A stretch of 64,000 nt of DNA from an uncultured Verrucomicrobiae bacterium (GCA_963813025.1 CAWEXO010000013.1:224001-288000); one strand, 5' to 3'. Positions 9,259-55,141 are shown, counted from the stretch's first letter. The notes: generated by a model from the letters alone, not told the origin. Numbers and translations are program-made.

Positions 9259-9588
9259 GGTCTGTCGGACTCTGGAAATCGTAGGATGCCATCAAGCGTT
9301 TGGTCGCGCGAGCGCTAGAGATCGTCTCAGAATGCCGCACTGTCCGGTGGCGGTAGGGCGAAAATTTATTTGAGCCGGACGCTTGGTGAGCCACCCGTCC
9401 CAGATGGCTCCGCCTTCGCCAAGGCTGTGGCGGACACGTCAAACAAGTTCTCGCCTGGCGCTCGTCCGGCAAGGCGGATCGCCCTATCGGGCTCAGGACA
9501 AAAGAGGCCTTGGGATATCCCTCCAACCTCTCTTCCGAACCATAGCTCGATTGCGCGCTCTACAGATTGCCCAAAGTCCGATAGACCC
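9259..9588. mobile_element. Full-length nested palindromic MITE-like element, centre inverted relative to the 53.8 kb copy, with a 30-nt insertion
   Basis: Imperfect terminal IRs ggtctgtcggactctggaaatc / gattgcccaaagtccgatagacc; collinear with 53785-54100; no coding capacity. Confidence 0.8.
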
Positions 9589-12928: not shown

Positions 12929-13543
12929 ATGTTTTTTCCGGCGTATCTGTTCGTCCTTGTTGCCATCGCGCATATCACCGGCCGCTTTCCTGCGGTTGAA
13001 ATGAGCGCACATCCGATTCTGTCGAAAGGAGAAGCAGTGATCGACGCTTCACCCACGCCGTGGCCGGGGCAGCGCTCGATGTTGTCGATTTACGTTGACC
13101 CGGACAATGACCAGGGTCAGCGAACGCTCGAAGTCCGCGGTAAACTTGATCGCGGTCTAAACAATCTGGAGGATCGAATTGTCGTCGTCGGAGTAGTCGA
13201 TCAGGACGTGGTCAGCGGGTCGGGAAGCATCATTATCTCGGCCGGATCCAAAGTCGTCGGTTTGGGGTTCTGCGATGCCGGCCGCGCCAGGATCGAGGCT
13301 CGAGGAAAATGGACTTTTTATGTCAGCGACCATCAGATTAGTTTGGAAGGTTCTCTCTGGGGCGCCGACCGCAAGGAAGGATTGTCCGGTATCGAGGTCG
13401 AGAACGGCATCGATCCAACCAGGGTCAAACAGGCCATTTGCCGGGATGGGATTTATGTGTACGTGCCCGAAGCAACCGAATTCGTCCTTCGCCTGAGCGG
13501 CAATATCTCCGTCCGGGATCTCGGGTCGGCCTTTGGCAAATAG
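12929..13543 (+). CDS. Small TrbI/VirB10-like beta-barrel domain protein
   Basis: IVVVG-V-QDV, IIISAGSKVVG, R-RI, GL-G, YVYVP-TEF-L pattern; N-terminal hydrophobic segment. Confidence 0.5.
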   Translation: MFFPAYLFVLVAIAHITGRFPAVEMSAHPILSKGEAVIDASPTPWPGQRSMLSIYVDPDNDQGQRTLEVRGKLDRGLNNLEDRIVVVGVVDQDVVSGSGSIIISAGSKVVGLGFCDAGRARIEARGKWTFYVSDHQISLEGSLWGADRKEGLSGIEVENGIDPTRVKQAICRDGIYVYVPEATEFVLRLSGNISVRDLGSAFGK

Positions 13544-13577
13544 CAGGGTGGGGGAACCGAATGCAACTGAGACTGGT

Positions 13578-13819
13578 CGGTGCGTCGGACTTTGGAAGTC
13601 GCTGCAAGATGAAGGTGGATGACAATCTCGAAAATGTCTCTGGCTAGAAGTGTCTTTGGGCCTGTGCCGTTAGGGCGAAAATTCATTCGAGCATTAGCGA
13701 GAACTTGTTTGGGTCGTCTGGAGCGCGTGGCTGCCGCAGATTCCGGCTCGAACGAGTCTTCGCCGAAGGCTCCTCCTTCGCTAAAGCTTCGGCGGACACG
13801 TCAAATGAATTCTCGCCCT
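13578..13819. mobile_element. Diverged copy of the nested MITE-like repeat, with a 30-nt insertion and interrupted by IS110
   Basis: gtcggactttggaa...tagggcgaaaattcattcgagc...gcgagaacttgtttg...aattctcgccct; continues as accggcgc at 15142. Confidence 0.8.
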
Positions 13820-13833
13820 TGTACCTTGCCCCA

Positions 13834-14060
13834 CCAATTTTTTTTCCCTTTTAAAGCCGCCCGCAAGGGCGGAACTCTGGAGGTGAAGAACTTGGCCGAG
13901 GAGGGTGGAAAACTGCCTCGCCCAAAGGTCGGTAGAACCTGTCCGGTAGATTAGTCCACCCTTCCTCGTGCCGCACCTGCATAAGACCGTACCGTATCTT
14001 AGGCCGTTCCAAACAGGGTTGGAACATAAGCCGTGTTCACAAGGCTCTGTCAGCAGGCGC
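13834..14060 (+). ncRNA. Predicted bridge RNA (5' hairpin, target-binding loop, donor-binding loop); ends approximate
   Basis: Hairpin ccgccc-gcaa-gggcgg 13857-72; stem 13897-909/13955-68 enclosing cctcgccca (13916-24) and ccggtag (13943-49); stem 13973-80/14053-60 enclosing accgtatct (13991-99) and acaag (14039-43). Confidence 0.85.
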
Positions 14061-14113
14061 GCGCCCAAGCGCTTCATCAAACAAAGAACCAATTCAACGC
14101 GAATTCCTGTCTG

Positions 14114-15124
14114 ATGAAAAAACGCTACTGCATGGGTATTGATATGGCAAAAGCAAGCTTTGACTTTTGCCTGCTCTCCAAGAATGGCACTCGCCTGTGG
14201 CGGGGAAAGTTCAGCAATGATGCGACCGGCATTGGAGCATTTTTAGCCCAACTCCAGGCCCGCTCTTGGCCGCTCTCCCAGATCCACTTCGCCCTGGAAG
14301 CCACCGGGGTCTACGGGAAGAGATTGATCGCCGCTCTGCACCAAGCAGGCTTGGCGGTCAGCGTGCTCAATCCCGCCCAAGTCAAATACTTTGCTTTCTC
14401 GGTCCTGCGCCGCACCAAAAATGATCGGGTTGATGCGGCCATCATTGCCCAGTTTTGTCTGGAGCGAAAACCACTGGCCACTCGGCCGCTGCGCCCCCTT
14501 GAGGAAGAATTCAAACTGCTGGTGCGGGAGCGCGAAAGCCGGGTTGGCGAGCTCATCCGGGAACAGAACCGGGTGAAAAAAGACCCTTACCCAATTGCGC
14601 TGCCCGAGCTTGTCAGCCAACAGCGTGGCCAACGACTCGCCCAGCTCAAGAAAGAAATCGCTCAGCTGGAGTCGGCCATCTTCGGCTTAGTCGCGGCTGA
14701 TCAGGCTTTAAGCCGCCAAAGCCAACTGCTGTGCTCTATTCCCGGCATTGCCCAGCTCACGGCCGCCAAGCTGCTGGCCGAGCTGGCCGGTAAAGAGTTC
14801 CAATCGGCTCGGCAGTTGGCGGCCTATGCTGGGCTGACTCCTTCTGAATTCCGTTCCGGTGTCTCGCTCTACGGCAAAACCACCCTGTGCAAAATCGGCA
14901 ACCCTTTCCTGCGCAAAGCACTCTATTTGCCGGCCGCCGTTGCTCGCCGCTGGTGTAAACCCATCCAGCAATGGGCCGCAGGTCTCGAGTCACGCAAGCT
15001 CCACTCCCTGGCTATCCGCGGTGCCGTCATGCGAAAACTCCTGCACATCGCCTTCGGTGTTCTCTCTCACCAACAACCCTACAATCCTAACCTGGCCCGC
15101 CATTCCTTAAAGCAATGCCCTTGA
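14114..15124 (+). CDS. IS110 recombinase/transposase (DEDD RuvC-like plus Tnp domain), 336 aa
   Basis: GIDMAK, LEATG, KNDRVDA (DEDD intact); SIPGI, QLAAYAGL-P-RSG (catalytic Ser), GNPFLRKALY. Confidence 0.95.
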   Translation: MKKRYCMGIDMAKASFDFCLLSKNGTRLWRGKFSNDATGIGAFLAQLQARSWPLSQIHFALEATGVYGKRLIAALHQAGLAVSVLNPAQVKYFAFSVLRRTKNDRVDAAIIAQFCLERKPLATRPLRPLEEEFKLLVRERESRVGELIREQNRVKKDPYPIALPELVSQQRGQRLAQLKKEIAQLESAIFGLVAADQALSRQSQLLCSIPGIAQLTAAKLLAELAGKEFQSARQLAAYAGLTPSEFRSGVSLYGKTTLCKIGNPFLRKALYLPAAVARRWCKPIQQWAAGLESRKLHSLAIRGAVMRKLLHIAFGVLSHQQPYNPNLARHSLKQCP

Positions 15125-15999
15125 CATCCAAGACCGTATCTACCGGCGCGGAGTCGTTTAAGCTTACCGCTTTATGCGCTGGCATCGGCTTTTGGTTATT
15201 TACTGCCGGACTGACGTCCGCGCAGTGGCAGCCACCGGCCGATCTGAAAAGTGTGCCGGTGCGACAGGACTGCGCGCGAACGCATAACGGAATCGGACTG
15301 TCAATTCAGCCCTCAGTGCTCTACCCCAACGGAGTCATTTTCTTGTGCCCGGAGAGAGCACAAGCAATTGATCGGGAACGCCCGGGTGCATCCTACTTTT
15401 TCCGGGTGCACGAATACGGTCATCTGGCGCTCCATACGCGGAGCGAGCCGGCGGCCGATACCTGGGCGGCTGAACAGCTGAGCCGCACTAAGGCGGGTCG
15501 CGCAATCATCAAGGAAGCGGCGCTCCACTTTGTCGATGAGGTTGACAGGTTCGATCCCAGGTATGGAACCGGCCTGGACCGAGCTCTCCGGATCTCGGTT
15601 GCCGGGCGAATTCCGCGGCAAGAATGGCCTAAACGCGTCAGCGATTATAGCAGGGTAGTAGCCGACGCGATCAAGCAAGGCAGAATCGTTCGTCTTCAGC
15701 TCAAGTCCGGATATGCTGACTCAGCAGAGATGATCGTGACGCTTGACCATCAGCCGCTTGGGTTCCTGTCAAACCGATCAGGGCTGGTGCCACTCACCAT
15801 TCCGCCGCTTGTGCCGGGCCACCACAACATGGAGTTCTCGGATGTCTGGCTTTACCACGCGGAACAGGGTGGGGGTCGAACAGAAGTTGCCCGCAACCTC
15901 AGCGCAATTGCTCACTTCGATGGCGGTACAGCCACAACGCTGCTCGTGCAGTTGGATTTCGACGGCCAGAAGCTAGCCGTAACCGCATCCGCACTATAG
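15115..15999 (+). CDS. Secreted hypothetical protein with HExxH metallopeptidase-like motif; start codon lies inside the IS110 right end
   Basis: Signal-like segment ending LTSA-Q; HEYGH followed by E-AD-WA. Confidence 0.6.
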   Translation: MPLTSKTVSTGAESFKLTALCAGIGFWLFTAGLTSAQWQPPADLKSVPVRQDCARTHNGIGLSIQPSVLYPNGVIFLCPERAQAIDRERPGASYFFRVHEYGHLALHTRSEPAADTWAAEQLSRTKAGRAIIKEAALHFVDEVDRFDPRYGTGLDRALRISVAGRIPRQEWPKRVSDYSRVVADAIKQGRIVRLQLKSGYADSAEMIVTLDHQPLGFLSNRSGLVPLTIPPLVPGHHNMEFSDVWLYHAEQGGGRTEVARNLSAIAHFDGGTATTLLVQLDFDGQKLAVTASAL

Positions 16000-16043
16000 A
16001 GTCGCTTCGGTTTGCTCAATCGTTGTATCGACAGAATTCCCTT

Positions 16044-53665: not shown

Positions 53666-53784
53666 AGTCTGCCAAAGGAGCAATGGCCGGAGAATCGCTT
53701 TTTTTGCCGCTCGGCGCAAGCTTTAGCTAGCGAGGCCGCGCCTCAGACGCCATTTTCAGGAGTTTCAGCGGTCAAGGACTCATT

Positions 53785-54100
53785 GGGCCTGTCGGACTTT
53801 GGAAATCTGTAAGTACGCCATCAAGCGATTGTTCGCGCGAGGGCTAGAGATCGTCTCAGAATGCCCCACTGTCCTGCGCCGGTAGGGCGAAAATTTATTC
53901 GAGCCCCAGGCGAGAACTTGTTTGAGCCATCTGGAGCGGGTGGCTCACCCAAGCGTCCGGCTCAAACAAGTTCTCGCTAAGGCTCGAATAAATTTTCGCC
54001 CTACCGGCGCAGGACCAAAGACGCCTTGGGACATCCCTCGAACCTCTCTTCCGAACCATAGCTCGATTGCGCGTGCTACAGATTTTCACAGTACAGACGC
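53785..54100. mobile_element. Best-preserved copy of the nested palindromic MITE-like element, with two empty IS110 target sites
   Basis: Perfect 35-bp IR (53871-905/53981-54015) enclosing a perfect 19-bp IR (53910-28/53959-77); outer ends match 9259-9588. Confidence 0.85.
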
Positions 54101-54248
54101 TCATTGTCAGTGCCTGTGCCGGCTGAATGTTGAAATGAAGGTTTAGACCTGCCCCACCGTCCAATGCGTTGTATGGCCGTCGAAGGCTGAACCGGTCAGT
54201 CAGAACCGCAAAGGCCGCCGCCGGCGAACAAGAAGCACAAAACAAGCT

Positions 54249-54713: not shown

Positions 54714-55141
54714 AAAATTGCAAGTGTCGGTGCTAATGCCAGTGGACAACTGGCACTAGCACCGTGAAGAAAGCGGTTCGCATAAAGAGATTGTCTCGCA
54801 ACGCCCGAGGTCGGTAGGGGCTCTCGTTCGACCTCCTCAATGTTGAATCACGTCTCGATCTGGACGAGCGGGCCGCCTTGGCAAGGCTACGGCGCGCCCT
54901 CCGGTCAAGCGTTTGAGCAACTCCATATCCCCCCGACGAACGCTTGTCCGTAGTCGGGAGCTCATCCAGGAGCTCATCCCTACCGCTCCTCGGTGCGGCT
55001 CGAATGAAATTCTCGCCCTGCCGGGACAGGTCCTAAGCAAGCCTGAAGCCGGTCAAGTCCGCACAACCCGCTCGCCCCTGCCGCTGCCATTCCCAAAGGT
55101 CACTCCTTGCCCCAACGGCAATCTGACGTATGGGAATTTGA

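Follow-up and report, generated by a model that had tools for sequence, protein, structure and literature searches.

An IS110-family insertion sequence at the tips of a host palindromic repeat that match its predicted bridge RNA

The copies of an IS110-family element in an uncultured soil bacterium, which we take to be a member of the Verrucomicrobiae, all lie at one position in a palindromic repeat of the host, and RNA-guided site-specific insertion very probably explains why they lie there. The analysis concerns a stretch of 64,000 nucleotides (GCA_963813025.1, CAWEXO010000013.1:224001-288000), referred to below as the window, and the genome to which it belongs (G000; 4.42 Mb, 16 contigs, 80% complete), in which copies of the element were found by blastn; relatives were sought in 31 related genomes. 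In the mechanism that we propose, the donor loop of a bridge RNA would match the element's own joined ends (...ACCGTAT-CT-TGTACC...), while its target loop would match TCGCC-CT-ACCGG, the outermost tip of each repeat arm, which is abundant and mostly intergenic. Site-specific recombination guided by this RNA would insert the element at a single base of the tip and in one orientation relative to the arm, and an insertion there would leave genes intact and many further sites free.

The IS110 element and its occupied site

The window holds a single IS110-family element, located in one arm of a copy of the repeat, with the following features.

13661-13819, unstranded: occupied repeat copy, comprising left arm, centre and right arm as far as ...TCTCGCCCT
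13820-15141, plus strand: IS110-family element ('family A'), 1322 bp, TGTACC...GTATCT, with the CT core counted at its right end
14132-15124, plus strand: recombinase gene, 330 aa, with DEDD_Tnp_IS110 and Transposase_20 domains
15121-15126, plus strand: TTGACA in the right end, a candidate junction-promoter box from a reading of the sequence only
15142-15146, plus strand: right half of the split target, ACCGG, read from the sequence

The split site reads TCGCC-CT^ACCGG: the left flank (13810-13819) is ...TTCTCGCCCT, the element follows, and ACCGG resumes immediately after it, the CT being common to the site and the element ends. The first-pass annotation had identified this occupied site as the same arm of another copy of the repeat, correctly so, but had overlooked a site with one mismatch in the other (left) arm of the occupied copy (13667-13680, minus strand).

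The recombinase matches both PF01548 and PF02371 in Pfam, residues 2-149 corresponding to the N-terminal IS110 domain (E = 8.9e-32) and residues 198-275 to the C-terminal Tnp domain PF02371 (E = 4.8e-22), and it aligns over residues 1-319 with the IS621 transposase (PDB 8wt6; E = 1.2e-45). The D of GID, the E of EATG and both D residues of DxVDA match the same residues of IS621 in this alignment, and in the C-terminal serine region ...FRSGVS is aligned to ...YESGSS of IS621, whose catalytic serine is given as S241 in the numbering of the structural paper (PMC11208158). The element ends, TGTACCTTGCCC... and ...AAGACCGTATCT, are not inverted copies of one another, so that terminal inverted repeats are lacking, and the CT is common to site and element ends in 12/12 copies, a short shared core taking the place of a true duplication. 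With both protein domains, no terminal inverted repeats, a CT core and a structured 5' RNA region, the element is an autonomous insertion sequence of the IS110 family and IS110 group, related to IS621.

The element presumably passes through a circular intermediate. If its ends were joined in a circle, TTGACA would be 17 nt upstream of TACCTT (13822-13827), and the two form a possible junction promoter of the circular form, for which there is precedent in IS621 (PMC11208160). We also note that a 294-aa open frame (15115-15999) has its ATG (15115) within the element's right end; with the TTGACA facing outwards, the insertion may have affected where the neighbouring gene starts or how it is expressed.

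The host repeat and its empty sites in the window

Two perfect and several imperfect empty sites lie in other copies of the repeat.

9350-9363, minus strand: imperfect site TTTCGCCCTACCGC in another repeat copy, one mismatch
9477-9490: partner arm GATCGCCCTATCGG of the 9350-9363 site, three mismatches, beyond the 2-mismatch search
53780-54103, unstranded: full composite repeat, outer modules and core, 324 bp, with the direct repeat TCATTG at both borders
53871-54015, unstranded: palindromic repeat core, with 35-nt and 19-nt perfect inverted arms, a 30-nt centre and two perfect, empty, outward-facing sites
53879-53892, minus strand: empty target site TTTCGCCCTACCGG in the left arm, exact match
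53994-54007, plus strand: empty target site TTTCGCCCTACCGG in the right arm, exact match
55011-55024, plus strand: imperfect site TCTCGCCCTGCCGG in a repeat variant, two mismatches

As the first-pass annotation had reported, TTTCGCCCTACCGG is present in both of the perfect 35-mer arms of the core (53871-53905 and 53981-54015), within which there is a second perfect pair of 19 nt. Folded as single-stranded DNA, the 145-nt core is predicted to form one long hairpin (-76.3 kcal/mol, z = -17). With at most two mismatches allowed, TTTCGCCCTACCGG has five matches in the window, compared with 0.67 expected from shuffles, and 0/100 shuffles reached five. The near matches that had been listed at the 9350-9363 and 55011-55024 sites are real; the one given as '9478-90' corresponds to 9477-9490 and has three mismatches.

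The repeat is modular. Its core (about 53873-54013) gives some 200 blastn alignments and the outer modules (53785-53870 and 54015-54085) give 45-75, equally on both strands, which indicates that the whole of 53783-54095 is a nested palindrome; the outer modules are themselves inverted copies. The tip motif terminates several types of arm, including one-unit and two-unit arms among others. The tip, CCGGTAGGGCG, contains GTAG as in REP sequences, and beside TTTCGCCCTACCGG there are natural variants ending ACCGA, ACCGC and ACCA.

A predicted bridge RNA in the 5' arm

The 325 nt located 5' of the recombinase gene are predicted to fold into two stem-loops, better than shuffled sequences (z = -4.0), and all four candidate guide segments are located in internal loops of these two structures.

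13894-13972, plus strand: predicted target-binding stem-loop, its guides named by analogy with IS621
13917-13923, plus strand: left target guide CUCGCCC, in the same sense as the left half-site; element positions 98-104
13927-13939, plus strand: small hairpin between the target guides, from the predicted fold
13943-13949, plus strand: right target guide CCGGUAG, antisense of CT-ACCGG; element positions 124-130
13950-13951, plus strand: AU at the handshake position of IS621, by analogy
13974-14059, plus strand: predicted donor-binding stem-loop, from the fold and by analogy with IS621
13991-13999, plus strand: left donor guide ACCGUAUCU, equal to the element's right end
14039-14043, plus strand: right donor guide ACAAG, antisense of the left end's CT+TGT; the next base (14044) is G

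In element numbering the donor guides are ACCGTATCT (172-180) and ACAAG (220-224). The description of IS621 has bottom-strand pairing for the left guides and top-strand pairing for the right guides, the core lying within each (PMC11208160), and two handshake bases that follow the right guides pair with positions 6-7 of the other DNA (PMC11208158). By analogy, the AU of the present element would fit the donor (...AT-CT) and the G the target (...C-CT). The left target guide departs from that of IS621 in terminating in an A, which lies opposite the core T and does not pair.

The target guides, CCUCGCCC and UCCGGUAG, are identical in all nine copies of the 99% type, as are the left donor guide and ACAAGGC. 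Six of these nine copies with the CUCGCCC guide occupy TTCGCCCT sites, that is, sites with a mismatch at a C of the guide.

The fold itself is conserved. Ten left ends (those of the window element, three mini-elements, a relic, one copy from the related genome G015 and four from G012) were aligned, and in the consensus two-loop structure, which was derived from the same alignment as that used to count compensations, 13/48 pairs are changed on both sides compared with 0-3 in slid controls; the compensatory pairs come mostly from one lineage (G012) and therefore represent few independent events. Paired cells amount to 97.2%; sliding the partners by 1-3 columns lowers this to 38-54%. At the gathering threshold Rfam has no family for the 5' arm, its sole match in the window being a tRNA. 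The 5' arm folds like the IS621 bridge RNA, with a target loop that matches both half-sites, and from these models it most likely encodes a two-loop bridge RNA, which the cell presumably makes. That such an RNA is aimed at a host repeat was the central proposal of the first-pass annotation, and both the match of CUCGCCC and CCGGUAG to the site and the presence of the repeat in a genome with no close relative of the element (see below) bear it out.

Insertions across the genome

G000 contains seven full copies of the element (99-100% identity) and five shortened or interrupted copies that have both ends, and additionally one relic with the left end only and one 142-bp internal fragment. All 12 of the both-ended copies have the left flank [TG][TC]TCGC[CT]CT and the right flank ACCGG and are inserted at the same base of the repeat, using one and the same phosphodiester bond and keeping a fixed orientation to the arm; the left junction of the relic, CTCGCCCT, is at this base too. 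The two flanks of each insertion, when joined, give back the exact intact tip. By the first-pass annotation's own account its idea would fail if most copies lay outside the repeat, and none of the both-ended copies does. The flanks beyond the repeat differ among the copies, which points to separate insertions, with the exception of the C13 and C11:733732 copies, which have in common a left repeat arm of 103 nt that is 100% identical.

The empty sites that had been predicted are numerous. Beyond the two in the window, the 12-mer TCGCCCTACCGG marks 95 perfect empty sites in the 4.42-Mb genome, counting both strands, where simple arithmetic would lead one to expect a random 12-mer about 0.5 times. 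Tips with TCGCCCTACC and no element number 231, and ACCGG is found in 95 of them as against 12/12 occupied sites (Fisher p = 3.7e-5); the remaining 136 near-sites depart from the perfect site solely in the two bases after TCGCCCTACC. Since ACCGG is present in all of the occupied sites, the element uses the subset of tips that is predicted by its 7-nt right guide. On the left side, CTCGCCCT sites are weakly enriched (5/12 occupied compared with 12/87 empty, p = 0.03), in a pool that mixes nine copies with the CUCGCCC guide and three mini-elements with UUCGCCC; among the nine the proportion is 3/9. This preference, being weak and confounded by the two types of guide, was set aside as support. 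The 24 bases upstream are identical to those of at least three other sites at 76 of the 95 perfect sites, and the other 19 are, by eye, mostly arm variants with indels.

Many of the sites are paired. Both tips are perfect and outward-facing in 20 repeat copies, and a 10-mer search gives 71 outward-facing pairs within 40-250 bp, 42 of which have spacings in the 110-119-bp bin. The first-pass annotation had raised the idea of recombinase-driven rearrangement between paired inverted targets; such sites, and the many copies of the element, would then serve for inversions, deletions or amplifications beyond simple insertion. The 20 doubly perfect copies lend themselves to it, as do the programmable inversion and excision described for IS621 (Durrant et al., PMC11208160) and the amplifications of >100 kb and 40.8% of REP targets in convergent pairs that a preprint on ISPpu10 reports (10.64898/2026.03.19.712850). 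We regard it as unlikely here, however: the 12 insertions are all simple, with the expected half-sites on both sides and recognisable repeat arms, so that the assembly lends the idea no support, and the contigs from reads, which are fragmentary, are without joints, although a single assembly cannot reveal variants in the population. When 13000-16000 was compared with contigs of three runs the matches were short fragments, uninformative either way, with no joint, circle junction or empty form among them; one public soil-metagenome run contains 0.48 of the sampled words, in a fragmented assembly, and no RNA run was listed as containing them.

No empty ortholog of the element was found in G001, a genome of the same genus, at the four loci compared. 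The window locus has no orthologous flanks there, a different half-repeat is present at the C11 locus, and the flanks of the C14 locus fall at separate places. At the C8 locus G001 has a heptamer tandem repeat where G000 has the repeat and the element, and this ortholog (L070, G001:C2, about 117495-117560) reads (ACTCGCC)n.

Guides and sites in related and unrelated IS110 elements

Relatives of the element have different sites and different guides. The one in G012 (49% protein identity) occupies ...TTTGCGC-CT-TTGTG... sites and has the guides UUGGCGCCU and CACAAAG, which fit with one mismatch on the left and none on the right. The G015 relative (75% protein identity) occupies TTTCGCC-CT-ACCT[T/G], as read in 4/5 copies, the fifth having a right junction only, and has the guides UUUCGCCC and UUAGCUAG. 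Its left guide is perfect; its right guide tracks a G-to-T change at one position and has one internal mismatch, a C opposite C, against all five sites. This C for G in the right guide (..GCUAG for ..GGUAG) is seen at G015 locus L011 and also in a mini-element of G000 (L050, on C9), and these GCUAG-guide elements sit in sites that still read CTACC, so the position may tolerate a mismatch. Identity among the G015 copies (L011 and L020-L023) is 99.6% or higher.

A second, unrelated IS110 lineage of about 1.7 kb is present in G000 in ten copies, all of which are outside the window.

G000:C4:2772-4466, C14:434645, C1:107170, C8:159952 and C5:141662: second-lineage copies
C16:83661, C13:92669, C13:131623, C11:82837 and C11:76271: further second-lineage copies

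This lineage uses the same repeat tip 3 nt upstream, at TTTTC-G^CCCTACC, where only the G is common to its own ends, and the loop in its 5' arm has AUUUUCG and UAGGGC. Whichever of the two lineages inserts, the site of the other is split. The changes of guide among the relatives mostly follow their own sites. Together with the ACCGG preference within G000 and the loop of the second lineage, they provide good evidence from nature that it is the loops which specify the sites, with some mismatches tolerated.

It is improbable, in our estimation, that the protein, or a hairpin or cruciform of the palindromic repeat, mainly picks the site and that the matches in the 5' arm matter little. The target does lie at the tip of a perfect repeat that can form a 145-nt hairpin, a stem-loop at the target is reported in the ISPpu10 preprint (10.64898/2026.03.19.712850) to add specificity, and the guide match has tolerated mismatches here. 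Against this, the small local hairpin beside the core does not outdo shuffled sequences (z = -0.33), insertions are also found in one-unit and variant arms in which the upstream sequence differs, a changed site goes with a changed guide in G012 and in the second IS110 lineage, and the ACCGG subset of tips alone is used. The RNA, rather than the protein alone, would thus be the likelier agent of site choice, and we retain RNA-guided insertion as the preferred reading.

Shortened copies provide several observations in their own right. Two mini-elements of about 1011 bp (L049, G000:C15:123616-124627, and L050, G000:C9:218161-219171) lie in different repeat copies, have a common internal deletion (element 553 to 859) and are 99.4% identical mutually and about 90% identical to the full element; both retain the element ends and the bridge-RNA region. 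The shared deletion and the close identity indicate that a defective copy has moved, presumably with help in trans. A further mini-element of 630 bp is located at C12:154618-155247. In the relic (G000:C4:5754-5894) a repeat arm is joined directly to the element at a shared TTCGCCC, a sequence that the left half-site and the DNA for the left guide have in common, and it looks as if the first ~100 nt had been deleted between TTCGCCC direct repeats; a metagenome contig has a similar loose end at window position 14062. The IS110 DEDD domain has 40 matches in G000, representing at least four or five lineages; one of these, with ~11 copies and the ends CTAGCTAGTTCCCC...TTCTTAGGAG, has flanks that vary and no tie to the repeat.

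Location, origin and nature of the repeat

Perfect sites inside any ORF of at least 150 aa number 16/95, and such ORFs cover 81% of the genome, although a mechanical ORF of this length is a crude proxy for the distinction between coding and intergenic DNA. The repeat had been described as a safe landing pad, a description with which these figures agree. The same figures, in that insertions outside long ORFs are tolerated, could be taken to mean that the element inserts widely and that copies persist only in neutral repeat DNA, but survivorship of this kind predicts scattered intergenic positions, not 12/12 insertions at one bond in one orientation to the arm, and it hardly merits consideration.

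The repeat is found without the element. In G001 the 145-nt core is matched 35 times and no close relative of the element was found, the best protein match there being 32% identical over part of its length. Counts of the tip 11-mer TTCGCCCTACC are 303 in G007, 346 in G010, 113 in G015, 10 in G001 and 2 in G012, compared with 1-6 for reversed-pattern controls, and among the 22 candidates scored in G007 there is no relative of the element. In G007, which belongs to another genus, the tip motif is arranged in head-to-tail units of ~89 nt (L006, G007:C2:2895606-2898640, about 1490-1800), each with a forward tip and then an inverted GGTAGGGCGAA 23 nt on, an arrangement that resembles clustered REP arrays. 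The sequence comparisons support a repeat that belongs to the host and is independent of the element. The tip motif, abundant in other genera too, is conserved across a superfamily of repeats in this bacterial family, and the targeting runs from the element and its 75% relative in G015 to the tip, not the reverse. That the repeat is instead part or a by-product of the element, as extended ends, a footprint or a mobilised derivative, a notion to which the identical 103-nt arms of the C13 and C11:733732 copies might seem to lend something, is scarcely credible in view of the 95 to 231 tips without an element, the repeat in G001 and the tip motif in G007 (the element being found in neither), the dissimilarity of repeat ends and element ends, and the exact intact tip restored when two flanks are joined.

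How the repeat itself arose is hinted at by a single locus. G001 lacks the 324-bp unit (53780-54103) at the orthologous position, where the flanks meet directly, and in G000 TCATTG stands on both sides of the unit. This single case would fit transposition with a 6-bp duplication; at the other 49/50 listed outer ends the flanks are further inverted modules or there is no paired end for comparison. By eye, the only genes between paired outer ends are those of IS110 insertions. The first-pass annotation had called the repeat a MITE, different from REP. The terminal inverted repeats of MITE type are certainly there (35-nt and 19-nt perfect arms), but the name is an unproven label for a modular, nested repeat with a GTAG tip and one case of a 6-bp duplication, and the difference from REP is a matter of degree.

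REP and REPIN repeats are mobilised by RAYT transposases, are intergenic, and have a GTAG-containing end, inverted doublets and long hairpins. The present repeat is like them in being abundant and mostly intergenic and in having a conserved GTAG-bearing end and inverted doublets able to form long hairpins; it differs in its longer units, which are AT-rich near the tip and nested in further inverted modules, and in having no Y1-transposase gene flanked by the motif. When Y1_Tnp genes were examined for the repeat (a 9-mer within ~1.5 kb), it was found at 0/3 loci in G000 and at 1/20 in G001, G007, G010 and G015, and a RAYT-associated repeat was rejected as a description because no cognate Y1 gene is flanked by the repeat and 1/23 loci has the motif nearby. 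Two Y1_Tnp genes in G000 (both IS200-like, RAYT-like; 231 and 204 aa; L001, G000:C11:984269-987493, and L002, G000:C5:183910-187140) are not flanked by it; around the L002 gene the same peptide recurs in the surrounding ORF translations, and this points to another local repeat on either side of it. From its sequence, the repeat may be described as a MITE-like or REP-like palindromic repeat of modular, nested construction.

Comparison with known systems

IS621 is reported to insert into REP sequences (Durrant et al. 2024, PMC11208160). The present element is like it in having a non-coding RNA region upstream of the gene, two internal loops, left guides in the sense and right guides in the antisense direction, and a CT core, as well as an AU after the right target guide and a G after the right donor guide at the handshake positions; both use as target the end of an intergenic palindromic repeat where GTAG lies, with the cut after ...CCT^AC. 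It differs in that its host is in a different phylum from E. coli, the host of IS621, in its right guide of 7 nt (CCGGUAG) compared with the 4 nt given for IS621 (PMC11208160, PMC11208158), and in its target, which is a modular palindrome of 145-320 bp and not a classical short REP.

A closer parallel in behaviour is offered by ISPpu9 and ISPpu10, dissimilar IS110-family elements that have one common REP position in Pseudomonas putida according to Tobes and Pareja 2006 (PMC1525189), who use 'type 1' for an association in which 100% of copies are at one REP position. The ISPpu10 targets are stated to be 97.1% non-coding, with 40.8% in convergent pairs <200 bp apart (10.64898/2026.03.19.712850). 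Here too 100% of copies occupy a single position in a host repeat, one repeat serves two dissimilar IS110 elements, and the targets are mostly intergenic and often in convergent pairs <200 bp apart. ISPpu9 and ISPpu10 use the same bond, however, whereas a 3-nt offset separates the two lineages described here, whose shared sequences are a CT core and a single G respectively, and neither rearrangement nor amplification was seen in this assembly. The full-text literature retrieved as joining IS110, MITE and 'bridge RNA' comprised a single paper, on ISPpu9.

The behaviour of the element is already known from IS621, ISPpu9 and ISPpu10, and it is a clean new example, not a new mechanism. Its small distinctions are the phylum, the long modular repeat used as a target, the 7-nt right guide and the presence of two lineages in registers 3 nt apart on the same 14 nt. 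One could go further and suppose that the 14-nt tip is a shared, long-lived landing pad on which several bridge-RNA lineages occupy staggered, exclusive registers, with convergent pairs and >20 copies driving rearrangements and with mini-elements mobilised in trans, but this would be a speculation with the odds well against it.

Implications

The known mechanism is unchanged by this case, which illustrates bridge-RNA targeting outside the Proteobacteria in a natural setting with internal controls. With 12 insertions, 95 perfect empty sites and 136 near-sites in one genome, it shows which positions of the guides matter, and it could help in mapping the natural rules by which guides and targets correspond and in the search for compact recombinases with a longer right guide.
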